Part shown: positions 26,381 to 39,023 of the stretch, piece by piece
Numbering within the stretch: the first letter of the stretch is position 1
Layout of the letters: each line of letters starts with the position of its first letter
DNA from: a virus
Lineage: Duplodnaviria > Heunggongvirae > Uroviricota > Caudoviricetes
Strand: one strand, 5' to 3'
DNA length: 64,000 nt
IMG/VR virus record: IMGVR_UViG_3300025011_000017
Notes under the pieces: generated by a model
Told to the model about the DNA's origin: nothing
Database searches by the model: none
The model's input: only the letters and a program-made list of their open reading frames with translations
Program-made: the position numbers and the translations under genes

Positions 26381-27181
26381 ATGATAAAAATTAATGGCAA
26401 TCATATAGGAGAAGATTGTTACCCTAATAACGAAAGAATATTTAGATTACCCCTTGAGAGGTTTTATCAGGATGAAGATTTTATCATAGAACTTAAATAC
26501 ACAACAGATATTGATCTTTCTATCCTTAATATGTGCAAAAGGTATTTAGAAAATAACTTTTATAATTCAAAAGTAACATTGGTAATGAAATATATTCCAT
26601 ACTCTAGAATGGATAGGAATATTAACGGTTACATGTTTAGTCTTAAATATTTTTGCAAATTCATAAATGAACTATATTTTGATGAGGTAATAGTTTTAGA
26701 TCCTCATTCTAATGTTGCTACAGCATTATTGGATAGATGTGTTGAGATTGATTTAAATCCGTATATTGATAAAATAATGCGAAGATTGCAAATAGACTAT
26801 GTATTATTTCCAGATAATGGTAGTTTAAAAAAGTATACCGAAATACTTACTTTAAGAAAACTCTACTTTTACGGAAATAAGAAACGCAATCTTCAAACTG
26901 GAAAAATACTTTACTATGAACTTATTGATTGTCCAGATCTAAAAGGTAAAAATATTTTAATTATTGATGATTTATGCTCAAAGGGTGGAACGTGTCATCA
27001 TGCTTCGTTGAAACTGAAAGAATTAGGAGTAAATGAGATATACTTGTATTTTTCTCATTGTGAAGATTCAATTTATGATGGTGCGCTATTAAATTCTGGA
27101 TTAATTTCGAAGATATTTACTACCGATAGTATTCTAAGTAACTGGACTAATAGTTTACTTAGTAATATAGAACAAATATAA
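26381..27181 (+). CDS. Prs-family ribose-phosphate pyrophosphokinase-like protein (candidate ADP-ribose pyrophosphokinase of an NARP1-like pair)
   Basis: PRPP-binding loop GKNILIIDDLCSKGGT aligned with Prs GKTAILIDDIIDTAGT; own promoter 26334-26362. Confidence 0.6.
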   Translation: MIKINGNHIGEDCYPNNERIFRLPLERFYQDEDFIIELKYTTDIDLSILNMCKRYLENNFYNSKVTLVMKYIPYSRMDRNINGYMFSLKYFCKFINELYFDEVIVLDPHSNVATALLDRCVEIDLNPYIDKIMRRLQIDYVLFPDNGSLKKYTEILTLRKLYFYGNKKRNLQTGKILYYELIDCPDLKGKNILIIDDLCSKGGTCHHASLKLKELGVNEIYLYFSHCEDSIYDGALLNSGLISKIFTTDSILSNWTNSLLSNIEQI

Positions 27182-27199
27182 AATAAAGGGGATATTAAA

Positions 27200-28912
27200 A
27201 TGAAATGTGATCCGATGTTTTGGGCAGATTTTTACAAAATTAGTCACTATTTGATGGGAGAAAAGGGTACGGAAAAACTTTATTCCACGTTTACACCACG
27301 ACATTCTAGAATAGAGGGAATTAATGAAGTAGTATTTTTTGGACTCCAAGGCTTCATTAAAGATTATATCATAGAGCAGTTTAACGTAGGATTTTTTAAA
27401 GTAAAAAAATCAAAAGTAATAAAAAGATATAAACGTCTTATATCATGTACTTTAGGAGATGGTTGTGCTGACTCTTCCCATATTGAAGCATTACATGATC
27501 TTGGGTATCTTCCTATTAGAATTAAGGCTGTCAAAGAAGGAACTTTGATTCCTATGAGAGTACCTGTATTTACAATTGAAAGTACAGATGAAAATTTTTA
27601 TTGGTTGCCTCTGTTTATGGAAACATTTATAAGTGCAAATATATGGAAAGTAATCACTTCTACAACTATTGTTAAAAAATACAGGGATATTTGTGAAAAA
27701 TGGTCAGAAAAAACATGTGATGATAGGTCGCATATTCAATGGCAATGTCATAATTTTAGTTATCGTGGAATGTCGGGAAATGAAGACGCTACTACTACAG
27801 GAGCAGGACATCTATTATATTTCACGGGTACAGATACGATTCCTTCTATTCTATATTTAGAAGATTATTATGGAACCAATGTAGAAAAAGAGCTTGTAGG
27901 AGCGTCAGTTCTTGCTACTGAGCATAGTATCCAATGTGGATATCAAGATGATATGAGATATTTTAAGAGAATGATTACAGAGGTTGCTCCAAATGGCATA
28001 GTTTCTGTTGTCGCAGATGGATATGATTATTGGAATTTCATTGGTAATATTGTTCCTGCTTTAAAAGAAGATATTATGAATAGAGATGGGAAGGCTGTAA
28101 TTCGTCCTGATTCTGGTTCGCCAATTAAAATCATTTGTGGGACAGTAATTGTTGAAAGTTTAACTAATCAAAATTATTGTGAAACATTAGAAAAATGTAA
28201 GACATGGATGCTAGATGGAATTAAAGAAGAAGTAAGAGTTGAAACTCCTCATGGAGAATATGGCGATTCCGAAGTAACTAGATACTTTAAATTTGACAAT
28301 AAAATATATAAAATCGTTGTTGAATTTGATTGGAATAGATACGATAAACAATATTATTATATGGATGGTAGTCGTGTAATAAGTTGTGATGAAATAGAAT
28401 TAACTATTGAACAAAAAGGTTCGGTAGAAGCATTATGGGATACGTTTGGAGGTACTGTTAATAGTAAGGGATATAAAGTATTAGATAGTCATGTGGGATT
28501 AATATATGGCGATTCAATTACTCCTGAATATGCAGAAGAAATTCTTAAACAACTAGAAGAAAAAGGTTTTGCAAGTTCGAATATTGTTTTTGGAGTGGGG
28601 TCTTATTCATTAGGATACTACACAAGAGATACCTTTGCGTTTGCTATGAAGGCGACTTACACCGTAATTAATGGAGAAGAGAGATTCATATTTAAAGATC
28701 CTAAAACAGATAATGGAATTAAAAAATCTCAAAGAGGTATGGTTGTAGTTCTACAAGATCTTGATACTGGTGAAATTTATTTTAAAGATGGATTAAATGC
28801 TGAAGAAAGAGATAATTATAAAGAATATGATTTACTTGAAGATGTTTTCGTTGACGGAAAAATGGTAAGGGAACAAACTTTGGCAGAAATAAGAGCAATC
28901 GTCTTAAAGTAA
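27200..28912 (+). CDS. nicotinamide phosphoribosyltransferase family protein (Nampt/Namat-like)
   Basis: Collinear with human NAMPT motifs: FWADFYKISHY / LPIRIKAVKEGTLIP / HNFSYRGMSGNEDATTTGAGHLLYFTGTDT / IRPDSGSP. Confidence 0.85.
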   Translation: MKCDPMFWADFYKISHYLMGEKGTEKLYSTFTPRHSRIEGINEVVFFGLQGFIKDYIIEQFNVGFFKVKKSKVIKRYKRLISCTLGDGCADSSHIEALHDLGYLPIRIKAVKEGTLIPMRVPVFTIESTDENFYWLPLFMETFISANIWKVITSTTIVKKYRDICEKWSEKTCDDRSHIQWQCHNFSYRGMSGNEDATTTGAGHLLYFTGTDTIPSILYLEDYYGTNVEKELVGASVLATEHSIQCGYQDDMRYFKRMITEVAPNGIVSVVADGYDYWNFIGNIVPALKEDIMNRDGKAVIRPDSGSPIKIICGTVIVESLTNQNYCETLEKCKTWMLDGIKEEVRVETPHGEYGDSEVTRYFKFDNKIYKIVVEFDWNRYDKQYYYMDGSRVISCDEIELTIEQKGSVEALWDTFGGTVNSKGYKVLDSHVGLIYGDSITPEYAEEILKQLEEKGFASSNIVFGVGSYSLGYYTRDTFAFAMKATYTVINGEERFIFKDPKTDNGIKKSQRGMVVVLQDLDTGEIYFKDGLNAEERDNYKEYDLLEDVFVDGKMVREQTLAEIRAIVLK

Positions 28913-28928
28913 GACAAAAAGTATATAA

Positions 28929-28973
28929 TTGGACTCTAAAAGTTAAAAAATATCTCTTTTAGAGTCCAATTTA
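28929..28973 (+). terminator. rho-independent terminator after Nampt-like gene
   Basis: 14-bp stem TTGGACTCTAAAAG / CTTTTAGAGTCCAA followed by TTTAAT. Confidence 0.6.
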
Positions 28974-28996
28974 ATAATGAAAGGAGTATTCTATAG

Positions 28997-30418
28997 TTGA
29001 ATATAGGTATATTTTATACAGAAAATAATATTAATTATTATCTTTGTACCTGTGGAAATAATTGGTCTATAAGTCAAACAGATTTAGTTGAAGATACTGA
29101 TAGGTTTTGTAATAAATGTGGATGTCATCACTTTAAAAATGTTGCTCCTAATTTTAATGGAGGAAATATTACTTACGAGGCAATTGTTTTAATTGAAAAA
29201 CAAGATTGGGGATTTATCCTTGAAAGAGAAAAGTTTAATTTAAAATACAACAAAAAAATAAATACACTTGTATTTTTAGAGTCTGTTTATTGTTGGAAAT
29301 TAATATATTCTTTTAAAGATGATTTATTTGTTTATTCTAAATCAGATGGTATTCAATATAAAATAAATATTGAATTTTTAAAATTATTCTTTAAAGGATA
29401 TAATGATCAAGATATGCTTATTGATTTAATATCTACTCCTAATAATAAAAAGTTATTTGAGTATGCGATATCTAAATTTGGATATGTTGGAAGGTATTCT
29501 AATAAATTATCTTATGGATTATCGAGATTTGTTAAATATAAAAAGATAGAATTATTTTTTAAATGTGGATATAATATGTATACAATTTATAACTTGATGG
29601 ATAGATATAATTCAAAAGACATTGATTTTAGTAAAAATAAACCAACAGAAATATTAGGAGTTCCTAAATATGCAATACAATATATTAAACCACATAACTT
29701 TTCGCCATATACTTTAGGAGGAATTAGGGAGTTACACAAGAATTTTGGCGGAAATGATTGTAAAATAATATTATCATATTTACGAGAAGAAACTGATTCA
29801 ATGATAAGTTTTCTTGGAAGTTCTAATATAGCTGAATTTATAAATTTGATAAAAAATTGTAATTACAAACCAAAACAATTAATTAGATATTTAACAAGGG
29901 GTATAAAACTCGAACAAGGTATACTTGATCCTATAGATGGCTTAACATTACTTAAAGATTATGTGTCAATGAGTAATAGAATGGGAGTAGAATATAATAA
30001 ATATAGCAAAAGTTTAAAGAAAGATCATGATATTTGCTCTATGAATTATAAAGTAACTGAAGATTCAAGAAAAAAAGAGTATTTTAGGAATGTAATATCT
30101 AGCAATAAATATAAAGAATTAATTTATAATAACAAAGAATACAGTATTATTATTCCACAAGAACCTATAGATATGATTTCCGAAGGAAAGCTACTCTCGC
30201 ATTGTGTGGCAAGTTATGTTGATGATGTGATAAACGGTAAATGCAAGATATTATTTATGAGAAAAACAGATTCCTTAGAAAGCTCCTTGTTAACCATTGA
30301 AATTCGCGAAAATAATATTATCCAAATTAAAGGATTTAGTAATAGAAGTCGTACAGAAGAAGAAGATTTATTTATAAAAAAATGGTCAAAAGAAAAAGAA
30401 TTAGGTATTTCTGCATAA
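28997..30418 (+). CDS. hypothetical protein (473 aa) with C-terminal HCVASY motif
   Basis: TTG after AAAGGAG; Cys/His-rich N-terminus. Confidence 0.5.
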   Translation: MNIGIFYTENNINYYLCTCGNNWSISQTDLVEDTDRFCNKCGCHHFKNVAPNFNGGNITYEAIVLIEKQDWGFILEREKFNLKYNKKINTLVFLESVYCWKLIYSFKDDLFVYSKSDGIQYKINIEFLKLFFKGYNDQDMLIDLISTPNNKKLFEYAISKFGYVGRYSNKLSYGLSRFVKYKKIELFFKCGYNMYTIYNLMDRYNSKDIDFSKNKPTEILGVPKYAIQYIKPHNFSPYTLGGIRELHKNFGGNDCKIILSYLREETDSMISFLGSSNIAEFINLIKNCNYKPKQLIRYLTRGIKLEQGILDPIDGLTLLKDYVSMSNRMGVEYNKYSKSLKKDHDICSMNYKVTEDSRKKEYFRNVISSNKYKELIYNNKEYSIIIPQEPIDMISEGKLLSHCVASYVDDVINGKCKILFMRKTDSLESSLLTIEIRENNIIQIKGFSNRSRTEEEDLFIKKWSKEKELGISA

Positions 30419-30447
30419 TATTAATATAAAATAATGGAGGAATTAAA

Positions 30448-31539
30448 ATGAAATTACAATTAGTAGAATATATCAAAAATAATTCAGACTGGGAAACTAA
30501 ACTAACCCAAAAACCATATTGTCTAACAATTAAACGTAAAGATAACTTGATAATGTTTTGCTATAATCAAATAGAGTCTAATTTTAATCTGCTATTAGTC
30601 AAGCAAAGCAGAGGAATTGTCCTTGAAGATACAACATTTAAACCTGTCTGCGTACCATTCTTTAAATTTTTTAATTTTGGTGAAACGAACGCAAGTGAAA
30701 TTGATTGGAATACTGCTAAAATTAATGAAAAACTCGATGGATCGTTGATCAAGCTATGGTTTTATGAAGACGAATGGAGAGTGTCTACCAACGGCACAAT
30801 TGATGCCAAAGACGCAAATTTATCAAGTGAAGTTAGTGAATATCAGAATTATTATGATCTGTTTTTAGTAGCACTTAGAGGCACAAGTATACAGTTACAT
30901 GAATTAGATCGACAATATACTTTTATGTTTGAATTAATGTCACCTTATAATCGCGTAGTAGTTCCGCATAAAAATATCCAAATACTTCATATTGGAACTC
31001 GATGCAATACAACTCTCGAAGAAGTAAATATTGATATTGGAGTACAGAAACCTAAATCATATAGCTTCAAATCAATAGAAGAGTGTATGGAGGTTGCTAA
31101 AGAATTACCGTTTACGCAAGAAGGATACGTTGTTGTAGACGATGACTGGCGTAGAATTAAAATAAAAAGCCCTGCATACGTGGCAGTTCATCATCTCGCT
31201 AATAACAATATTATCACTAAGAAAAGAATCGTAGATTTAATAAAGTTAAATGAAGACTCTGAGTTTCTTGCTTATTTTCCTGAATATAAAGATGCAGTAG
31301 AAGATATTCGTAAGAAGATTAGTGCTTTTGTATCAGATATGGATTGGTGCATCGAGTGTCAACAAGAAATTAAGAATAAGAAAACTATTAATCGAAAAAA
31401 ATTTGCGGAATTTGCTTTAAGTACAAAATGTAGTCCTGTTTTATTTAGTTGGTTAGATGGGAAAATATCCAATACTCAAGAATGGCTTTATGCACAGACA
31501 AGTGAGAAAATAGTTGAATGGATTGAAGGAGTGAAATAA
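30448..31539 (+). CDS. RNA ligase, Rnl1-like
   Basis: Motif I EKLDGSL, motif IV QEGYVVV, motif V IKIKS. Confidence 0.6.
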   Translation: MKLQLVEYIKNNSDWETKLTQKPYCLTIKRKDNLIMFCYNQIESNFNLLLVKQSRGIVLEDTTFKPVCVPFFKFFNFGETNASEIDWNTAKINEKLDGSLIKLWFYEDEWRVSTNGTIDAKDANLSSEVSEYQNYYDLFLVALRGTSIQLHELDRQYTFMFELMSPYNRVVVPHKNIQILHIGTRCNTTLEEVNIDIGVQKPKSYSFKSIEECMEVAKELPFTQEGYVVVDDDWRRIKIKSPAYVAVHHLANNNIITKKRIVDLIKLNEDSEFLAYFPEYKDAVEDIRKKISAFVSDMDWCIECQQEIKNKKTINRKKFAEFALSTKCSPVLFSWLDGKISNTQEWLYAQTSEKIVEWIEGVK

Positions 31540-31540
31540 A

Positions 31541-32428
31541 ATGGTTAAATTCTATATGATGATTGGATTACCTGCAAGCACAAAGACAACTTATGCGTAC
31601 AAAATTGCTGAAAGAGACAAAGCGTTAGTATATTCATCTGATGACCTGAGAGTTGAACTATACGGAAATATTAACAATCAGTCACATAATGAAGCACTAT
31701 TTATAGAATTATATAAACGTATTCGTGATTCGCTAAAAGCAGGTAAGAATGTGATTCTCGATGCAACAAATATTTCGTACAAGAAAAGAATTTCATTTTT
31801 AGATACCTTAAAGAATATTGAATGTGATAAAATAGCTATATTTATGGCAACACCATACGAGGATTGTTTGAGATTAAATAAATTAAGGGAGAGAGTGGTT
31901 CCTGAATTTATAATAAAACGTATGTATGAAAATTTTAATGTACCTCAACGATTTGAAGGATTTGATTCGATAGAAATTGTATGGAACACTTTTGGTCGTA
32001 CATTTGACGGTTTTGATTTATTCGATGAATTAGATGAAATGGATCAAATTACTCCTTACCACACTCATACAATTGGCATACATTGCAAAGAGTGTTACAG
32101 GATATGTTCAAAGTTATCAGATAATTATGAACTAAGAATTGCTTCCTTGTTTCATGATATATCTAAACCATTCGTTCAACAATGGAATGATGAGAAGAAA
32201 CGTTGCACCTACTATCAGCATCATCTCGTTTCAGCTTACGATGCTATGTTTTACCTTCGCGAAATTAATCAAGATTCTCTCTTAAAGATAGTAAATTATA
32301 TTCAATTCCATATGTTACCATATAATTTAATATCTGATAAATCTAAAGAAAAATTTATCAAACTAGTCGGCAAAGAATTCTTCGACAACTTATTGTTACT
32401 TAATTATGCTGATACAAATGCTCATTAA
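31541..32428 (+). CDS. P-loop kinase - HD phosphohydrolase fusion (polynucleotide kinase/phosphatase-like end-healing enzyme)
   Basis: N-terminal MIGLPASTKTT (deviant Walker A), ILDATN; C-terminal HD motifs H..H, LFHDISKP. Confidence 0.5.
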   Translation: MVKFYMMIGLPASTKTTYAYKIAERDKALVYSSDDLRVELYGNINNQSHNEALFIELYKRIRDSLKAGKNVILDATNISYKKRISFLDTLKNIECDKIAIFMATPYEDCLRLNKLRERVVPEFIIKRMYENFNVPQRFEGFDSIEIVWNTFGRTFDGFDLFDELDEMDQITPYHTHTIGIHCKECYRICSKLSDNYELRIASLFHDISKPFVQQWNDEKKRCTYYQHHLVSAYDAMFYLREINQDSLLKIVNYIQFHMLPYNLISDKSKEKFIKLVGKEFFDNLLLLNYADTNAH

Positions 32429-33981: not shown

Positions 33982-34006
33982 AATAAAATAAAAGGTGGAA
34001 ATAAAA

Positions 34007-35098
34007 ATGATAGTTAATGAAAAAAATAACATGGTGACTATGATCGACAGGAAAAATAGATTTGTCGAGAAGTTTAATCGTGAGACAGGTTTCTATATTA
34101 GATCTGGAGTAATGGACAAAGATGGCAATGACACTGGTGTAGATCCATTTATGAGACAGTTTCCCTCGCTACTGGATATTGGAATTATGGGACATTGCAA
34201 GAATGCTTTAAGATGTACAGTTGGTTGCTATCAAGGAAAAATGAATAAACCTAATATGTCTCTTGAAAACTTTAAGAAAATAGTTGATCAATCTAAGGGA
34301 AAAGTATTTGAAATGGCATTAGGAGGAAGTGGTAGTCCAAATGAACACGAAGACTTTATCGAAATTCTCAAATATGCTAGAGGAAACGGTATTGTGCCTA
34401 ATTACACTACCTCTGGAATTGATTTAACTGACGAGCAAATTAAAGCTACAAAAGATTTCTGCGGTGCAGTTGCCGTGAGCCATTATGATCAACCTTACAC
34501 TTATGACGCAATCAATAGATTTATTGAAGCAGGATGTAAAACTAATATACATTTTGTCTTAGGAAATGATTCCATTGATGATGCAATTAGAAGGCTTAAA
34601 GAAAATGATTTTACCAAAGGCATTAATGCTGTAATATTTCTTATGTATAAACCAGTTGGTTGTGTAAAAGAAGGAAATGTTTTAAAATTTGATGATCCAA
34701 GAGTTGCAGAATTTTATAATTTAATTGACACTGGAGAGTTTGATTTTAAAGTTGGTTTAGATGCCTGTCATTTACCTGCTTTAATGAATTTCTCAAAAAA
34801 TATAAGTGTTAATTCAGTAACTCCTTGTGACGGGGCGAGTTTTTCTGGATACGTGACTCCTGATTTTAAAATGTTACCTTGTTCATTTGATACAGTTACA
34901 TTAAAATATGCTGTAGATTTAAATGAATATACAATCCAAGAAGCATGGGATAGTGATAAATTTGAGTTATTCAGAAACTATCATAAAAATAGTTGTTCAG
35001 GATGTGCAAATCAAAACGATTGTAGAGGTGGATGTGTCTTGACACAAGAAATAAATAGATTATGTAATAGAAAGGAGAAAGACATTTATGAAATTTAA
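34007..35098 (+). CDS. radical SAM / SPASM-domain enzyme (non-canonical CX5CX3C cluster motif)
   Basis: GIMGHCKNALRCTVGCYQG, glycine-rich FEMALGGSGSPNEHED (GGEP-like), NYTTSG; C-terminal CSGCANQNDCRGGCV SPASM/twitch signature plus extra Cys (CDGASFSG...LPCSFD); start ATG 34007 (track GTG 33995). Confidence 0.6.
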   Translation: MIVNEKNNMVTMIDRKNRFVEKFNRETGFYIRSGVMDKDGNDTGVDPFMRQFPSLLDIGIMGHCKNALRCTVGCYQGKMNKPNMSLENFKKIVDQSKGKVFEMALGGSGSPNEHEDFIEILKYARGNGIVPNYTTSGIDLTDEQIKATKDFCGAVAVSHYDQPYTYDAINRFIEAGCKTNIHFVLGNDSIDDAIRRLKENDFTKGINAVIFLMYKPVGCVKEGNVLKFDDPRVAEFYNLIDTGEFDFKVGLDACHLPALMNFSKNISVNSVTPCDGASFSGYVTPDFKMLPCSFDTVTLKYAVDLNEYTIQEAWDSDKFELFRNYHKNSCSGCANQNDCRGGCVLTQEINRLCNRKEKDIYEI

Positions 35099-35432
35099 GA
35101 GTGATTATACTACTAATTCTAGTAGCACATGTTTTACTATTACTAATAAATCTAACAAAGACAAAACTTTGGTTGATTTTGTGACAGAAAATCCACAATT
35201 GGTTAAAGAATTTGTTGATGAATATCGTGGTGGAGATGATAAATATTTTACCCAAGGAAGAATGTTAATTGATGCAGAAAAAAGAAGTGAAATATTTCCT
35301 GCTAATTCATCTATAAATAGTGGCTATGGAGATGAAGATGGAGATGTATTAGGACATGTATTTGACTATATTCTTAGAGATGGTGGTAAGTCCGAAAGTT
35401 TTGAATGGGAATTCAAGGAATATTGGAGGTAA
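35088..35432 (+). CDS. paralog 1 of TNSSSS-motif small protein family (114 aa)
   Basis: MKFKSDYTTNSSSTCFTI...; start overlaps rSAM gene end by 11 nt. Confidence 0.5.
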   Translation: MKFKSDYTTNSSSTCFTITNKSNKDKTLVDFVTENPQLVKEFVDEYRGGDDKYFTQGRMLIDAEKRSEIFPANSSINSGYGDEDGDVLGHVFDYILRDGGKSESFEWEFKEYWR

Positions 35433-35434
35433 AA

Positions 35435-35719
35435 ATGAAGATTAAAACTGATTATACTACTAACTCGTCTAGCTCATCATTTATTTGTACTAAATGTAAA
35501 AATTTAATTCATGATTTTGATAACGATGCAGATTATGAAAGGGAAATGTGCGATTCTTGTTATCAAGATTTAAGTCCAGAAGATAGAAAAAGGTTGGATA
35601 ATGGCGAAGATATTAATTATAATAAAGTGGAAAGTTATTTGGAGTTTTTATGTCAAAAAATGATTTATGATAAGAAAGAAATAATGAATAATTATAAAGA
35701 GTGGAGGAAGTCACATTGA
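35435..35719 (+). CDS. paralog 2 of TNSSSS-motif family (94 aa; CxxC...CxxC)
   Basis: GGAGGTAAAAATG; MKIKTDYTTNSSSSSFICTKCKN...CDSCYQ. Confidence 0.5.
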   Translation: MKIKTDYTTNSSSSSFICTKCKNLIHDFDNDADYEREMCDSCYQDLSPEDRKRLDNGEDINYNKVESYLEFLCQKMIYDKKEIMNNYKEWRKSH

Positions 35720-36132
35720 AAACACGGTTAGATTTTGTAACAAATAGCTCAAGCAGTTCTTTTATTGCAGTTTTTGCAAGAATTTCAGATAAATCAAAAG
35801 CACAACCAATTATCGAAAAATATGACTATGAGGTTTATACAGGCGAAGAACTTTTAATAGCAATGGGGAATAGAATATGGAGTAAATTATTTGAATGGGA
35901 TTGGGCAGGAGTAGACCTTACTCCTTCAGAAGAATATGTGCAAAAGAATATCACTTCTGAATTCATCTTTTTTAGTGACAATGAAGATATTGATGAATCG
36001 GATGGAGAACCTAATTATGATATTGATACAGATGATTTTTCAGAAGAAACAATGAAAGCAATTGATGCAGTAAATAAAGAAAATGGATTTACTGATATCA
36101 AATCAGGATTTGGTGCAGGGAGGGATGGTTAA
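35716..36132 (+). CDS. paralog 3 of TNSSSS-motif family (138 aa; acidic C-terminal tail)
   Basis: TTG after GGAGGAAG; LKTRLDFVTNSSSSSFIAVF...; overlaps paralog 2 stop. Confidence 0.5.
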   Translation: MKTRLDFVTNSSSSSFIAVFARISDKSKAQPIIEKYDYEVYTGEELLIAMGNRIWSKLFEWDWAGVDLTPSEEYVQKNITSEFIFFSDNEDIDESDGEPNYDIDTDDFSEETMKAIDAVNKENGFTDIKSGFGAGRDG

Positions 36133-36492
36133 TTGAAGATACGCTTAGATTATATTACAAATAGTTCTAGTTCATCCTATACTTGTATTATTTGTGACAA
36201 TACGGAGTCTGGAATGAATGTAGGAATGTCTGAATTAGGAATGATTCAATGTGAGAACGGTCATACGATGTGTGAAGATCATGCAACAGGAGAAATTGAT
36301 GATACGTATGATTTTCCTGCTGAAAGTTGTCCAGTATGCACATTTGATAATCTTATAGATAAAGATATTTCTAAGTATCTTTTGAAAAAGTATAATATAA
36401 ATTTATCCGACCTTAAAACAGAAATGAAGACAATTTTTACTAATTACAATGAATTCGAGCAATATATTATAGTTGACAAAAGTATAAAATAA
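36133..36492 (+). CDS. paralog 4 of TNSSSS-motif family (119 aa; Cys/His-rich)
   Basis: TTG after GGGAGGGATGG; LKIRLDYITNSSSSSYTCIICDN...CPVC. Confidence 0.5.
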   Translation: MKIRLDYITNSSSSSYTCIICDNTESGMNVGMSELGMIQCENGHTMCEDHATGEIDDTYDFPAESCPVCTFDNLIDKDISKYLLKKYNINLSDLKTEMKTIFTNYNEFEQYIIVDKSIK

Positions 36493-36495
36493 TGC

Positions 36496-36524
36496 TTGAC
36501 ACGGGATTAAAATAATGATATACT
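36496..36524 (+). promoter_or_regulatory. promoter upstream of vWA/Ter module
   Basis: TTGACA 36496-36501; TGaTATACT 36516-36524. Confidence 0.5.
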
Positions 36525-36626: not shown

Positions 36627-37421
36627 ATGGGATTATTTGATAAACTATTTGGTAAAAAAACTCAAACTCAAACTCAAACTCAAACTCAAACTCAAACTCA
36701 AACACAGGTAGTAACACCAACAATTTTAACACCTATTATACCAGAGGTAAACAATATTAGAAAACTAGATTTACGTAAAGAAACTCTTAAAATTTCACTT
36801 GTAAAGAATTCAATGGAAAATGTTGTGGCGAGAGTAGCATTAGTTTTGGACAAATCTGGATCAATGGACTATTTATATAATAGGGGAGTTGTTCAGTCAG
36901 TAGTCGAAAGAATATTACCCATAGGGCTTAAATTTGATAAAGATGATGAGTTAGATGTATGGGTATTTCATAATACCTTTAAAAGAATGACTTCTGTTAC
37001 AGAAAATACATTTCATGACTACGTAAATCGTGAAATTATACCTAAATATGGTTGGGGTGGAACGAGTTATGCACCTGTAATTAAAGATATTATGAACAGG
37101 TATATAATTGAAGAACCATCTGACATTCCGACATTTGTAATATTTATTACAGATGGAAATAATAACGATAAAGAAGAAACAACAAAAGCTATTATTAAAG
37201 CGTCTAATTATAATATTTTCTGGCAATTTATTGGAATTGGACATGAAAAGTTTACGTATCTCAAAGATTTGGATACAATGGATGGACGCTTAATCGATAA
37301 TGCTAATTTCTTTGAGATAAAAGATATTAACAAGATTAATGACGAACAACTCTATGATCTTTTACTGAATGAATATCCGTCTTGGGAAAAACTTGCTCTA
37401 AAAGCAAAATTAATTAGATAA
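36627..37421 (+). CDS. vWA-domain protein (TerY-like) with N-terminal (Thr-Gln)8 repeat
   Basis: MIDAS LVLDKSGSMDY; (ACTCAA)n encodes TQTQTQ...; promoter 36496-36524. Confidence 0.65.
   Translation: MGLFDKLFGKKTQTQTQTQTQTQTQTQVVTPTILTPIIPEVNNIRKLDLRKETLKISLVKNSMENVVARVALVLDKSGSMDYLYNRGVVQSVVERILPIGLKFDKDDELDVWVFHNTFKRMTSVTENTFHDYVNREIIPKYGWGGTSYAPVIKDIMNRYIIEEPSDIPTFVIFITDGNNNDKEETTKAIIKASNYNIFWQFIGIGHEKFTYLKDLDTMDGRLIDNANFFEIKDINKINDEQLYDLLLNEYPSWEKLALKAKLIR
36656..36704 (+). repeat. (ACTCAA)n hexanucleotide microsatellite, about 8 units, in frame within the vWA gene
   Basis: aaactcaaactcaaactcaa... encodes (TQ)8. Confidence 0.8.
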
Positions 37422-37497: not shown

Positions 37498-38073
37498 ATG
37501 TCAATTGATTTAGTAAAAGGTCAAAAACTCGACTTAACGAAAGGTACTTCTTTAAAAAATATTAAGGTTGCTCTAGGATGGGATGCTCAAAAACATGTAG
37601 GAAAAGATTTTGATCTAGATGCTTCAGTTTTTTGTTGTAACGAAAAAGGTAAATGTGTAAATGACACTGATTTTATTTTTTATAAAAATTTAAAACATCC
37701 TTCAGGGGCAATTATTCATACAGGTGATGATAAAACAGGTGAAAATGAAGGCGATGATGAGACGATAATTGTTGACTTCTCCAAAATACCAGAAAATATT
37801 AGCAAGCTTGACTTTGTAGTAACTATTTACGATGCGTTAGCACGTAGTCAAAATTTTGGACAAGTAAATAATGCGTATGTTCGTGTATTGGACTCTGATC
37901 AAAATGACAAAGAATTACTTCGTTTTGACCTTGGAGAAGATTTCAGCTTAGAGACAGGAGTTTCAGTTTGTGTAATTTATCGTAAAGATGGAGAATGGAG
38001 ATTTCAAGCTGTTGGATCAGGATATAACAATGGTCTTGAGGGATTTTGTAGGGAACATGGTTTAGATGTTTAA
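37498..38073 (+). CDS. terD: TerD-family stress protein
   Basis: MSIDLVKGQKLDLTKG..., Ca-binding GDDKTGENEGDDETI motifs; promoter 37428-37456. Confidence 0.75.
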   Translation: MSIDLVKGQKLDLTKGTSLKNIKVALGWDAQKHVGKDFDLDASVFCCNEKGKCVNDTDFIFYKNLKHPSGAIIHTGDDKTGENEGDDETIIVDFSKIPENISKLDFVVTIYDALARSQNFGQVNNAYVRVLDSDQNDKELLRFDLGEDFSLETGVSVCVIYRKDGEWRFQAVGSGYNNGLEGFCREHGLDV

Positions 38074-38288: not shown

Positions 38289-39023
38289 ATGAATGATTTT
38301 TTTACTAATATTTTGCTTAATTTACAGCATTTTAATTTACATGAATTGGGACTAGTAATACAAAGTCCTAAAGATATTTTCCTTATCATGACACTATTTT
38401 TTATGGAAATATTTTTGTCCATAGATAATGCTCTTGTTTTGGCAATTATGGTAAAACATTTGCCTCCAAAAGAGCAAAAGAAAGCATTAAAATATGGAAT
38501 AGTAGGAGCTTATACTTTTAGGCTAATAGCAATTACGTTGGGTCTGTATCTTGTAAAAATTATGTGGATAAAATTATTAGCCGCATTATATTTAGCAAAA
38601 ATAGTATTTGATTTTTTTAGAAATAAAGACGAAAATCAAAATGGTGTTAAGGACGTCATGGAAAAAAGTTTAATTGCAACAATTATTTCAGTTGAACTAG
38701 CAGACATAGCTTTTAGTGTAGATAGTGTCGTAGCCGCATTTGGTATCTCAGATATTCCTTGGGTTATTGCAATTGGCGGTATGGTTGGAATTTTGGCAAT
38801 GCGAGGTATTGCACAATTGTTTGTAAAATTAGTTGCTAAAATTCCTGAGTTAGAAACTACGGCACATGTATTGATTGGTATTATTTCCTTAAAGATGTTT
38901 TTGGGAGTGTTTAGTATTCATCCTCCAGAGTGGTTATTCTTTGCTACATTAATTAGCACATTTGTCGGGACATTCTTCGTACATCAATATCGACAAAAAA
39001 ATATTTCACAAACTGCTAAATAA
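38289..39023 (+). CDS. terC: TerC-family integral membrane protein
   Basis: LSIDNALVLAIMV signature, multiple TM helices. Confidence 0.65.
   Translation: MNDFFTNILLNLQHFNLHELGLVIQSPKDIFLIMTLFFMEIFLSIDNALVLAIMVKHLPPKEQKKALKYGIVGAYTFRLIAITLGLYLVKIMWIKLLAALYLAKIVFDFFRNKDENQNGVKDVMEKSLIATIISVELADIAFSVDSVVAAFGISDIPWVIAIGGMVGILAMRGIAQLFVKLVAKIPELETTAHVLIGIISLKMFLGVFSIHPPEWLFFATLISTFVGTFFVHQYRQKNISQTAK

Follow-up and report, generated by a model that had tools for sequence, protein, structure and literature searches.

Introduction

Radical-SAM/SPASM enzymes that act on peptides and proteins are the closest described counterparts of the phage locus analyzed here. RiPP maturases of the SuiB/StrB type, known for the Lys-Trp cross-link of streptide, combine a partial TIM barrel with a SPASM domain bearing two sets of auxiliary-cluster cysteines, as do SkfB, CteB, PqqE, and ChlB, and their substrate genes adjoin the maturase gene and share a conserved recognition sequence. 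The radical-SAM/SPASM enzyme anSME/AtsB converts Ser or Cys to formylglycine on full-length sulfatases, within a short Ser-containing motif. In the QhpD/QhpC pair, a SPASM enzyme with one dedicated substrate forms Cys-based thioethers and thereby cross-links a subunit of about 100 residues of quinohemoprotein amine dehydrogenase, which stays intact and functional. Glycyl-radical-enzyme activases of the PflA type have no SPASM domain and act on a Gly loop at the C-terminus of a large enzyme. The internal proteins of phage T4 (IPI–III and Alt), which are diverse, fast-evolving, tandemly encoded, and in some cases anti-defence factors, share an N-terminal capsid-targeting sequence, which the prohead protease cuts and for which no radical-SAM enzyme is required.

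Here we describe a cassette in a 64,000-nucleotide stretch of DNA from a virus of the Caudoviricetes (the window), in which a radical-SAM/SPASM gene is followed by four ORFs with a common N-terminal tag. It resembles the SuiB/StrB-type systems in its barrel, its SPASM cysteines, the adjacency of the putative substrate genes, and the conserved recognition sequence, but the phage enzyme has loop insertions in its Cys motif (CX5CX3C) and a short beta-sheet where a PqqD-like RRE, for which Pfam gave no match, would be expected, the putative substrates are folded proteins of 94–1062 aa, what is conserved is an N-terminal tag of 16 residues and not a leader before a variable core, and the system is borne by phages and prophages with neither a conserved protease nor a conserved exporter. 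For a Ser-rich target, the chemistry of anSME/AtsB is the simplest precedent; the tag, however, lacks the sulfatase motif (C/S)-x-(P/A)-x-R, with neither Pro/Ala nor Arg standing in register, no sulfatase domain is found in the tagged proteins by Pfam, and the tag is strictly N-terminal and sits on many unrelated proteins. With the T4 internal proteins the analogy is one of logic alone, without sequence similarity, and the phage tag, in contrast to the capsid-targeting sequence, has no conserved cleavage motif and shows both linkage to and co-variation with radical-SAM enzymes. On balance, and by a modest measure, we favor the reading that this is a two-component phage system, consisting of a tag carried by folded, otherwise unrelated proteins and a radical-SAM/SPASM enzyme that modifies the tag; the pairing, found in many uncultured phages and prophages, probably constitutes a previously undescribed means of modifying whole proteins chemically.

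Organization of the Cassette

The ORF coordinates in Table 1 agree with those of the preliminary description, as do the cluster motif, glycine loop, and SPASM cysteines of the enzyme and the starts and translational coupling of the four consecutive ORFs that share an N-terminal TNSSS motif. The enzyme ORF spans 33995/34007–35098, its ATG at 34007 lying 8 nt past AAGGTGGA. A GGAG-type Shine-Dalgarno sequence precedes each of the tagged ORFs, which begin with MKFKSDYTTNSSSTCF, MKIKTDYTTNSSSSSF, (L/M)KTRLDFVTNSSSSSF, and (L/M)KIRLDYITNSSSSSY, respectively, and the same starts are used in database gene calls of identical proteins (P0019, P0024, P0001, and P0002).

Table 1. Positions of the cassette features within the window
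Feature	Coordinates	Strand	Remark
Radical-SAM/SPASM enzyme, 363 aa ("type-1" maturase)	34007..35098	+	
N-terminal four-stranded beta-sheet of enzyme, residues 2–32	34010..34102	+	AF2 secondary structure
Radical-SAM cluster motif C64-x5-C70-x3-C74-Y, non-canonical spacing	34196..34228	+	3 Cys invariant, 119 homologues
GGSGSP loop, GGE-like SAM-binding motif variant	34322..34339	+	G106, G107, G109 invariant
SPASM domain, 8 conserved Cys (C254, C274, C292, C330, C333, C339, C343, C353)	34766..35065	+	PF13186 match
Tagged protein 1, 114 aa, ATG, small alpha/beta domain	35088..35432	+	Start overlaps enzyme stop
Tag of protein 1, MKFKSDYTTNSSSTCFT	35088..35138	+	N-terminal
Tagged protein 2, 94 aa, ATG, two CxxC pairs	35435..35719	+	
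Tag of protein 2, MKIKTDYTTNSSSSSFI	35435..35485	+	N-terminal
Tagged protein 3, 138 aa, TTG start, acidic C-terminal half, ending GAGRDG	35716..36132	+	Overlaps preceding stop
Tag of protein 3, MKTRLDFVTNSSSSSFI	35716..35766	+	N-terminal
Tagged protein 4, 119 aa, TTG start, Zn-ribbon type (C18xxC21, CENGHT-C, C66PxC69)	36133..36492	+	Abuts ORF 3
Tag of protein 4, MKIRLDYITNSSSSSYT	36133..36183	+	N-terminal
Promoter-like site TTGACA-17-TATACT, TG-extended, directly past last tagged gene	36496..36524	+	Scan score 11/12, best

The promoter-like site behind the last tagged gene is a probable 3′ boundary of the cassette; it is a consensus match alone, the total count of such sites in the region being not above the shuffled expectation. 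The genes around the cassette are accessory or counter-defence-like: NAD salvage and RNA repair genes in the window, and DNA methylases and Lar in its relatives. Ter genes were considered as a component of the system and rejected, being unconserved across groups; they adjoin the cassette only in the window, as vWA-TerF, TerD, and TerC, and in a single lineage of related phages, where just a vWA-TerF-like gene is present. At the DNA level, blastn against 50,697 phage records returned no relative of the cassette, and tblastn searches of deposited phage genomes with tagged proteins 1 and 4 and with a relative of protein 1 carrying Ser at tag position 9 gave no match; no cultured phage model emerged.

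The Radical-SAM/SPASM Enzyme

The cluster motif of the enzyme reads H-C64-KNALR-C70-TVG-C74-Y, and the canonical CX3CX2C of PF04055 is absent. The C-terminal CX2CX5CX3C (C330-SG-C333-ANQND-C339-RGG-C343), together with C254, C274, C292, and C353, conforms to the SPASM pattern of seven or eight cysteines in total, and every cysteine of the cluster motif and the SPASM region is invariant among 119 homologues; judging from this pattern, the region is expected to hold two auxiliary 4Fe-4S sites. The HMM searches proposed in the preliminary description were divided in their outcome, with Pfam SPASM (PF13186) matching residues 274–333 above its cut-off (23.0 bits, E = 9.6e-5; cut-off 21.5), but TIGR04085 falling slightly under its own (25.0 bits; cut-off 27) and Radical_SAM (PF04055) scoring 20.2 bits against a cut-off of 29.5, in a match that begins past the Cys motif. 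A partial (beta/alpha)6 TIM-barrel core of the radical-SAM kind is present. Because of the sub-threshold Radical_SAM score and the atypical Cys spacing and GGE-like loop, it is not certain that the enzyme cleaves SAM reductively to a 5′-deoxyadenosyl radical. The cluster motif, which had been described as non-canonical, does have the CX5CX3C spacing, but this is a derived loop-insertion variant, since members of the same family at 30–50% identity carry the canonical one (L184, L189, L198, L199, L204, and L209), and a GGRGDP loop is found in family members with canonical spacing. Across the family, the spacings are C-x7-C-x6-C (n = 118), C-x5-C-x3-C (n = 19), C-x7-C-x2-C (n = 7), and C-x3-C-x2-C (n = 6).

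The closest folds to the predicted structure are those of the peptide- and protein-modifying maturases SuiB, SkfB, PqqE, CteB, and anSME, at sequence identities of merely 12–21%, and a profile search with the enzyme matches the SPASM regions of PqqE and CteB. NCBIfam equivalog scores, including those for anSME/AtsB, lie far under their cut-offs. Identity with a housekeeping family of the NrdG or QueE type, named beforehand as the counter-case, is not borne out, as no full-length alignment to such a SPASM-less family was found, and both the predicted fold and the SPASM domain support the assignment of the enzyme to the peptide or protein maturases instead. At its N-terminus, AF2 predicts strands at residues 2–4, 9–14, 19–24, and 30–32 (pLDDT 86–96), within a region in which F23, G28, F29, Y30, and R32 are conserved. 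Pfam returns no PqqD/RRE match in the enzyme, and no extra conserved gene lies nearby in 75 locus groups; the modeled sheet is a candidate docking surface for the tag.

The N-Terminal Tag and Its Cargo

All four ORFs of the window start with M-K-x-[KR]-x-D-[YF]-x-T-N-S-S-S, and the consensus across loci is M-K-h-R-x-[DG]-F-V-[TS]-N-S-S-S-[ST]-S-[FY]-h, of 16–17 residues, beginning at residue 1 in every case. In 222 distinct tags found by profile, N10, S11, S12, and S13 are about 100% conserved and K2 and F7 nearly invariant. No conserved Cys or invariant Gly occurs in these tags, unlike what would be needed by analogy with QhpD, which moreover does not face thousands of cargo proteins, or with the PflA-type activases. 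The motif is not a product of chance, given that its strict form has no other occurrence in the six frames of the window and is found 205 times on the enzyme strand and never on the opposite strand in 80 related loci. In the four tags of the window, its Ser codons come from both the TCN and the AGY family; such synonymous switching between codon families points to selection on the peptide, and a DNA repeat or translation element was rejected on this ground. Beyond position 17 no residue is conserved, positions 17–24 being variable and without a protease-cleavage motif. With its invariant N-S-S-S center, the tag resembles a reaction site more than a leader to be discarded.

Past about residue 20 the four proteins are unrelated to one another, and their divergence, the acidic tail of ORF 3, and the CxxC pairs of ORFs 2 and 4 are as first described. 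None has a significant match in Pfam, NCBIfam, PHROGs, or PADLOC, where they match only phrog_7397, weakly and at the N-terminus, and zinc-finger families below threshold. Protein 1, which by sequence belongs to the most widespread cargo family, has 79 full-length homologues at 46–75% identity. In its AF2 model (pLDDT 86), whose fold has no PDB or BFVD match, residues 1–11 are disordered (pLDDT < 50), suggesting that this part of the tag is exposed; the hydrophobic strand that always follows the Ser run forms beta1 of the domain from residue 13, so that the run may be partly buried once the protein has folded, in which case modification would be needed before or during folding. For protein 2, the identical protein P0024 is the sole full-length relative among the matches listed. 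The orthologous family of protein 3 comprises 24 sequences at 44–83% identity, and its likeness to family 4 is confined to about 20 N-terminal residues; in the latter, Cys and His are invariant and zf-RING_5 is matched weakly, under the Pfam cut-off.

The tag profile retrieves 7,711 protein clusters at 50% identity; a 40-residue version returned short proteins only and added little. A genome may carry up to 15 tagged genes. The non-tag parts fall into at least 48 mutually unrelated clusters of 35–1062 aa, with domains that include Zn ribbons, BRCT, and LRR. Far from being hypervariable, as had been proposed, the downstream parts each form a conserved orthologous family (ORF-1 type, ~115 aa; ORF-3 type, ~138 aa; ORF-4 Zn-ribbon type). 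Neither Pfam, NCBIfam, PHROGs, PADLOC, and PDB nor the literature searched holds anything that matches the system, and full-text searches with tag motif strings and with combinations of phage, SPASM, radical-SAM, and RiPP gave no relevant match, in keeping with the original view that motif and arrangement lie outside the described families.

Recurrence and Co-variation of Enzyme and Tag

The neighborhood search that had been suggested finds the motif beside the enzyme in many phages and prophages. Among 160 related loci drawn from viral contigs and, for the most part, from genomes of Clostridia, the sole conserved neighbors of the enzyme are tagged ORFs, numbering 1–10 per locus on the enzyme strand and mostly downstream (346 of 383 lie on the same strand and at most 6 kb downstream). 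When 149 loci were reduced to 75 groups by merging enzymes at least 90% identical, the only recurring genes were the enzyme (75/75) and tagged ORFs (67/75); several groups without the standard tag have variants (TNSSCASS, TNSSDSSF) or are truncated contigs. No conserved protease, exporter, immunity gene, or RRE partner was found near the cassette in these groups. The pairing has exceptions, in that a distant homologue of the enzyme in T4-like Slopekvirus phages has no tagged ORF within ±5 kb, and 11 of 42 loci of the ORF-1 family have tagged ORFs but no radical-SAM gene within ±10 kb, these being windows on larger contigs.

Tag and enzyme also co-vary, a pattern that is confounded by common descent of the loci. 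All tags beside enzymes of the C-x7-C-x6-C or C-x5-C-x3-C class have T at position 9 (335/335), and all those beside C-x7-C-x2-C enzymes have S there (19/19); position 4 is K in 39/39 tags at loci with a second radical-SAM family and R in 98% at close type-1 loci. ORF-1-like, ORF-3-like, and Zn-ribbon cargo each bear the tag variant that matches the local enzyme. The second family (KCNINCDYC motif) lies directly 3′ of a tagged ORF in 12 loci without a type-1 enzyme, and its kinship with type 1 is at the superfamily level only (a probability of 14% in hhalign, across 102 radical-SAM core columns); the radical-SAM gene of locus L001, once considered a type-1 orthologue, was rejected as such and belongs to this second maturase lineage. 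By sequence comparison, this is an unrelated family that was recruited independently and replaces type 1 in some phages. As the arrangement is conserved and co-varies across hundreds of loci, the functional link between enzyme and tag is well founded, and a protein-modification cassette, as first suggested, remains the best reading.

Alternative Interpretations

The RiPP-precursor logic of the preliminary description has fared less well. That a small modified peptide is released from the tag, with the C-terminal parts serving as follower or carrier regions, is very improbable in our judgment: the maturase has a RiPP-maturase fold, several precursor-like genes lie 3′ of it, and tagged ORFs of 30–70 aa occur in metagenomes (many on very short contigs and perhaps fragments), but the cassette has no conserved protease, transporter, or immunity gene, no conserved leader peptidase or exporter among the 75 dereplicated groups, and no export signal in what is a phage-borne system. 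In place of short precursors with a conserved leader and variable core, the tagged proteins measure 94–138 aa in the window and reach 1062 aa at other loci, their C-terminal parts are folded, conserved orthologous families under selection, and one identical product from as many as 15 genes would be redundant. With folded, conserved families and neither protease nor exporter alongside, the tagged proteins are better read as substrates with a portable modification tag. It is also improbable, if less strongly so, that they form one extremely divergent superfamily, in which strand and Ser loop belong to the core, serving the fold or binding a ligand (as a nest for phosphate or metal, possibly together with recurrent C-terminal endings, SHH among them), and the radical-SAM gene is a pathway neighbor rather than the source of an enzyme that acts on them. 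The constant strand after the Ser run, an hhalign alignment between the ORF-1 and ORF-3 families reaching ~53 columns, and C-terminal endings shared between clusters (SHH in 45/307, CNHMG in 21, and GAGRNG) speak for such kinship; however, once the first 18 residues are removed, hhalign detects no relationship among the 16 largest clusters apart from one pair, architectures and lengths differ widely, residues 1–11 lie outside the predicted fold, no known fold or family is matched, and the tracking of enzyme subtype by tag variants is left unexplained.

We regard as rather unlikely, too, that the tag serves in docking or targeting and is itself chemically unchanged. Its cargo would then be interchangeable specificity or adaptor subunits for an enzyme modifying something else, for instance a host protein, nucleic acid, or metabolite, or would be sent to one common location, for example the prohead. 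Its strictly N-terminal position on heterogeneous cargo in multiple tandem copies, the likeness to the T4 internal-protein locus, the binding modules among the cargo domains, and the accessory and counter-defence-like surroundings all suit this proposal, and co-variation fits binding as well as catalysis. Against it, the invariant N-S-S-S core with co-varying flanks resembles a reaction site with recognition residues, the sequence behind the tag holds no conserved site for protease cleavage, SPASM enzymes of the same fold class act on the peptides or proteins that they bind, and pure prohead targeting leaves the linkage to two different radical-SAM families unexplained.

Proposed Mechanism and Significance

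Under the favored reading of a modified tag, we infer the following sequence of events. The exposed, strand-prone residues 1–9 would dock on the enzyme, possibly by strand addition to its N-terminal four-stranded sheet, placing N10-S11-S12-S13 and/or the near-invariant K2 and F7 at the SAM/4Fe-4S site; a 5′-deoxyadenosyl radical would take a hydrogen atom from the tag, and the two SPASM auxiliary clusters would relay electrons as the covalent change is installed. Ranked by precedent, the candidate chemistries are formation of formylglycine by oxidation at the C-beta of Ser (anSME type), C-C or C-O cross-linking within the molecule via F7, K2, or T9 (SuiB, DarE, or TqqB type), epimerization, and radical backbone cleavage at Ser-Ser. 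No dedicated protease would remove the tag, which would stay in place as a portable handle for modification; the cargo proteins that bear it are probably effectors directed at the host. The modified N-terminus, for example an aldehyde or macrocycle, may confer a new property such as reactivity, stability, or targeting. More tentatively, and with slightly less than even confidence, we propose that this is an unrecognized large class of phage and prophage protein modification, in which a portable N-S-S-S tag on thousands of unrelated phage proteins is served by at least two co-evolved, mutually unrelated radical-SAM maturase lineages and gives a fast-evolving effector repertoire a common new property.

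If the enzyme modifies the tag, the system would represent a very large new substrate class for radical-SAM/SPASM enzymes, made up of whole proteins rather than peptides and spanning at least 7,700 clusters, and probably a new protein modification centered on Asn-Ser-Ser-Ser. It would likewise supply a 16-residue, transferable, enzyme-addressable N-terminal tag for site-specific protein chemistry, comparable to the formylglycine "aldehyde tag". For the phages themselves, it would mean that diversifying accessory and effector proteins pass through a common maturation step in phages of gut and rumen Clostridia and in large uncultured phages.

Organization of the cassette

The preliminary description of this region, a radical-SAM/SPASM enzyme with four tagged ORFs, is borne out, with the enzyme motifs and all four ORFs present (see the table). 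The enzyme carries the N-terminal cysteine set H-C64-KNALR-C70-TVG-C74-Y (CX5CX3C), a G106-GSGSP loop, and the C-terminal cysteines C330-x2-C333-x5-C339-x3-C343, as well as C254, C274, C292, and C353. The four ORFs follow it without gaps, two of them overlapping the stop codon of the gene before, and each is preceded by a GGAG-type ribosome-binding site. Their common start, M/L-K-x-[KR]-x-D-[YF]-x-T-N-S-S-S, and their divergence afterwards both hold, nothing detectable being shared past about residue 20; we refer to the 16–17-residue N-terminal segment as the tag and to the rest of each protein as its cargo. The serine codons of the tag alternate between the TCN and AGY families among the four ORFs, which places its conservation at the peptide level, and the six frames of the window contain no further copy of the strict motif. 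Directly 3' of the last tagged gene lies a promoter-like sequence of the extended -10 type, close to consensus (TTGACA-17-TG-TATACT, 36496-36524), which suggests that the Ter genes form a putative transcription unit separate from the cassette.

Features of the cassette and its surroundings in the window
Feature	Position	Strand	Remarks
PRTase-like protein	26381-27181		upstream of cassette
NAMPT	27200-28912		upstream of cassette
PcfJ-like protein	28997-30418		upstream of cassette
T4-type RNA ligase	30448-31539		upstream of cassette
AAA_33 kinase fused to HD domain	31541-32428		upstream of cassette
Radical-SAM/SPASM enzyme, 363 aa	34007-35098	+	ATG most likely at 34007; AAGGTGGA precedes start
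Tagged ORF-1	35088-35432	+	N-terminal tag
Tagged ORF-2	35435-35719	+	N-terminal tag
Tagged ORF-3	35716-36132	+	N-terminal tag
Tagged ORF-4	36133-36492	+	N-terminal tag
vWA-TerF-like protein	36627-37421		immediately downstream of cassette; begins with (TQ)7 repeat
TerD	37498-38073		downstream of cassette
TerC	38289-39023		downstream of cassette

Distribution and conservation of the enzyme–tag pair

More than 1,828 homologues of the enzyme were found, the 120 best-scoring of those listed being 52–85% identical over the full length. The neighborhoods of 160 were analyzed, 80 from viral contigs and 80 from bacterial genomes, the latter fetched from 449 matches, mostly in MAGs of Lachnospiraceae, Oscillospiraceae, and other Clostridia, with a few isolates. 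Carriers in culture include Clostridiales bacterium CCNA10, with five tagged genes near 1.00–1.02 Mb of AP018533, and Lacrimispora amygdalina (L096). In 140 of the 160 loci, between one and ten tagged ORFs lie on the enzyme strand, and for 346 of the 383 tagged ORFs in the set the distance downstream of the enzyme gene is 6 kb or less. In the first 80 loci, a search for the strict motif gave 205 matches on the strand encoding the enzyme against none on the complementary strand. When loci with enzymes at least 90% identical were merged into 75 groups and their neighboring ORFs clustered all-against-all, conservation was confined to the enzyme (75/75) and the tagged ORFs (67/75); proteases, transporters, and separate recognition proteins are not among the conserved neighbors. 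The eight groups left include some truncated contigs and some variant tags, for example TNSSCASS and TNSSDSSF.

Among phages, 172 T4-like Klebsiella, Enterobacter, and Cronobacter phages encode a 27%-identical homologue, such distant homologues being annotated "radical SAM protein" or hypothetical. In the sole T4-like phage inspected, Klebsiella phage Matisse (KT001918), the homologue CPT_Matisse164 has a C-x7-C-x2-C motif, and no tagged ORF lies within ±5 kb of it. Relatives of three queried tagged proteins were likewise absent from deposited phage genomes.

A common tag on unrelated proteins

Across the 160 loci the tag begins at Met1 and follows the consensus M-K-[IVF]-R-x-[DG]-F-V-[TS]-N-S-S-S-[ST]-S-[FY]-[IV]. 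In 222 distinct tags, collected by profile and not by regular expression, N10, S11, S12, and S13 are conserved in about 100%, K2 in 99%, F7 in 96%, and V8 in 94%. A search of 1.84 billion representative proteins with the tag profile gave 7,711 matching clusters at a threshold of E ≤ 1e-3, of which 1,329 also pass E ≤ 1e-10, and among the best 150 matches the alignment almost always starts at residue 1.

The cargo, by comparison, falls into many families. The 160 loci yield 307 distinct full-length tagged proteins of 35–1062 aa, which form at least 48 sequence clusters once the tag is removed; the 16 largest clusters, stripped of their first 18 residues, are mutually undetectable by hhalign, one pair excepted. 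Each of the four window proteins stands for a separate family. That of ORF-1 (~115 aa) includes 79 full-length relatives among the top matches; conserved orthologous families also exist for ORF-3 (~138 aa, with GAGRNG at the C-terminus) and for ORF-4, a Zn ribbon whose Cys and His residues are invariant; the ORF-2 type was rare in the homologue search. In profile–profile alignment, the match between families 3 and 4 is limited to 20 columns at the N-terminus, and that between families 1 and 3 extends over about 53. None of the four window proteins has a counterpart in Pfam, NCBIfam, PHROGs, PADLOC, or the PDB, and Pfam searches of 45 representatives from the wider set returned only BRCT (3/45) and BspA-type LRR (2/45) domains; acidic character is frequent. 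Certain C-terminal endings recur among otherwise unrelated tagged proteins (L011–L170), namely SHH (45/307), CNHMG (21), and GAGRNG/GAGRDG, the last of which terminates window protein 3 as GAGRDG, and these endings might serve as a further recognition or metal-binding element.

The enzyme and its cluster motif

The enzyme passes the Pfam gathering score for SPASM (23.0 versus 21.5 bits), as expected from the earlier reading; a Radical_SAM match is present too, but it remains below threshold (20.2 versus 29.5 bits) and begins after the cysteine motif. The NCBIfam models for PqqE and for the tungsten-cofactor and mycofactocin maturases match far below threshold, the SPASM domain model is also sub-threshold, PHROGs assigns phrog_7293 (function unknown), and PADLOC gives weak viperin (pVip) matches (E about 1e-3), so that no named family emerged beyond these domain-level, function-unknown, and weak matches. 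The AF2 model (pLDDT 93.9, pTM 0.91) comprises a four-stranded N-terminal sheet (residues 2–32), a partial TIM barrel, and a SPASM domain, and the solved structures nearest to this predicted fold are peptide- and protein-modifying radical-SAM/SPASM maturases: SuiB (score 26.2, 309 residues aligned), SkfB (23.4), PqqE (21.0), CteB (20.7), anSME (20.4), ChlB (20.2), and TigE (19.7). A housekeeping identity was rejected, PflA (12.4) and QueE (9.9) scoring far lower.

The non-canonical CX5CX3C motif is indeed present, but it is one of several spacings in the family (type-1 enzymes). The three N-terminal cysteines are invariant and the spacing differs: 118 distinct enzymes have C-x7-C-x6-C, 19 have C-x5-C-x3-C as in the window enzyme, 7 have C-x7-C-x2-C, and 6 have the canonical C-x3-C-x2-C. 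Because the cysteines are invariant, the spacing variable, and canonical members exist, the window motif derives by loop insertion from an ordinary radical-SAM site; the unusual motif is no sign of a pseudo-enzyme, and the site is predicted to be a radical-SAM one.

Co-variation and a second radical-SAM family

All tags that accompany C-x7-C-x6-C or C-x5-C-x3-C enzymes have Thr at position 9 (335/335), and all that accompany C-x7-C-x2-C enzymes have Ser there (19/19); the common ancestry of the loci inflates these counts and those given below for position 4. Position 6 changes in parallel from Asp to Gly, and the ORF-1-like, ORF-3-like, and Zn-ribbon cargo families bear whichever tag variant fits the local enzyme.

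A second line of evidence comes from searching outward from the ORF-1 family, which gave 42 loci with up to 15 tagged ORFs within 20 kb. The type-1 enzyme is found in 19 of these, a different radical-SAM family takes its place in 12, and no radical-SAM gene lies within ±10 kb in 11. This second family (L001:13503-14558, with homologues at L171, L173–L179, L183, L185, and L188) has a canonical KCNINCDYC motif, a C-terminal Gx4C...CxxCx3C cysteine set, and a Pfam Radical_SAM score of 51 bits; by sequence, the solved protein closest to it is MoaA, and it is related to the type-1 enzyme at superfamily level only (hhalign probability 14%). The gene lies directly downstream of a tagged ORF in 8/8 loci inspected. 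In these loci, tag position 4 is occupied by Lys (39/39) and position 14 often by Thr, whereas close type-1 loci have Arg at position 4 in 98%. That two radical-SAM lineages were recruited to the same tag points to radical-SAM chemistry or binding aimed at the tag, and would otherwise be hard to explain.

Paralogue expansions occur at L193:1800-10900 (15 tagged ORFs in ~9 kb) and L184:4300-19900 (12). Homing-endonuclease-type insertions accompany the maturase genes: one enzyme homologue, P0192 (626 aa), carries NUMOD3 and GIY-YIG domains, and an HNH ORF (L001:12892-13506) lies just upstream of the second radical-SAM gene.

Genomic surroundings

The accessory, counter-defence-like block at 26381-32428 suggests putative NAD salvage and RNA or tRNA repair. 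On the other side, the vWA-TerF-like gene also adjoins the cassette in a related phage lineage (L007–L009), and the Ter-type module shows no general conservation across the locus groups; accessory genes near the cassette in relatives include DNA methylases, Lar, and PAPS reductase. Essentially all plausible genes of the window (1-64000) are on the + strand, the GC content is 27–33%, and the GC skew remains above zero along the whole stretch (+0.15 to +0.42). Contigs as long as about 183 kb carry proteins identical to those of the window, a hint that the phage genome is large.

Proposed mechanism and alternatives

We lean toward a two-component, protein-level tag-and-modify system as a reasonably probable account of these patterns. 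The exposed N-terminal half of the tag, with its alternating, beta-strand-like pattern, would be what the enzyme recognizes, with specificity contacts at the co-varying positions 4, 6, 9, and 14; hydrogen-atom abstraction would take place at the invariant N-S-S-S, possibly involving K2 and F7 as well. The resulting change could be conversion of Ser to formylglycine, with anSME as precedent, a C–C or C–O macrocycle, for which SuiB-, DarE-, and TqqB-type enzymes are precedents, epimerisation, or radical cleavage at Ser-Ser. The run of serines reaches directly up to beta1 of the folded domain, and the tag occurs exclusively at the N-terminus, so modification may precede or accompany folding; since no protease is linked, the tag probably stays on the protein.

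It is unlikely that the tag is instead a docking or targeting peptide, itself unmodified, serving enzyme adaptor subunits or acting like the T4-like capsid-targeting signal: pure targeting accords poorly with an invariant core whose flanks co-vary, with the absence of a cleavage motif after the tag, and with the link to two radical-SAM families. Binding that leaves the tag chemically unaltered may nonetheless apply. More doubtful still is a single hyper-divergent superfamily in which the N-terminal strand and loop form a fold or ligand-binding element; the recurrent endings (SHH, CNHMG, GAGRNG) and the strand following the Ser run would fit, but the architectures are heterogeneous and the first 11 residues disordered. 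That the tagged proteins are genuine RiPP precursors, a reading akin to the RiPP-like alternative of the preliminary description, appears very improbable, as the short precursor, variable core, and peptidase or exporter that define a RiPP cluster are absent here, the cargo consists of conserved orthologous families, and neither a protease, a transporter, nor a separate recognition protein is conserved nearby.

Relation to known systems

The tag-and-modify system also differs from the anSME–sulfatase pair, of which both the substrate motif and the sulfatase substrate are missing. The enzyme is folded like the SPASM peptide and protein maturases, and probably acts like one, but is the equivalog of no characterised member; the literature searched contains no description of its pairing with tagged proteins. 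Because the cargo is diverse, is often acidic or built from binding modules, and is encoded among accessory genes, we suspect that these proteins are host-directed effectors. A radical-SAM maturase with genetically linked substrates, here putative, is the known part of this arrangement; what is new is the protein-sized cargo, the portable N-terminal tag, the two maturase lineages, and the carriage by phages.
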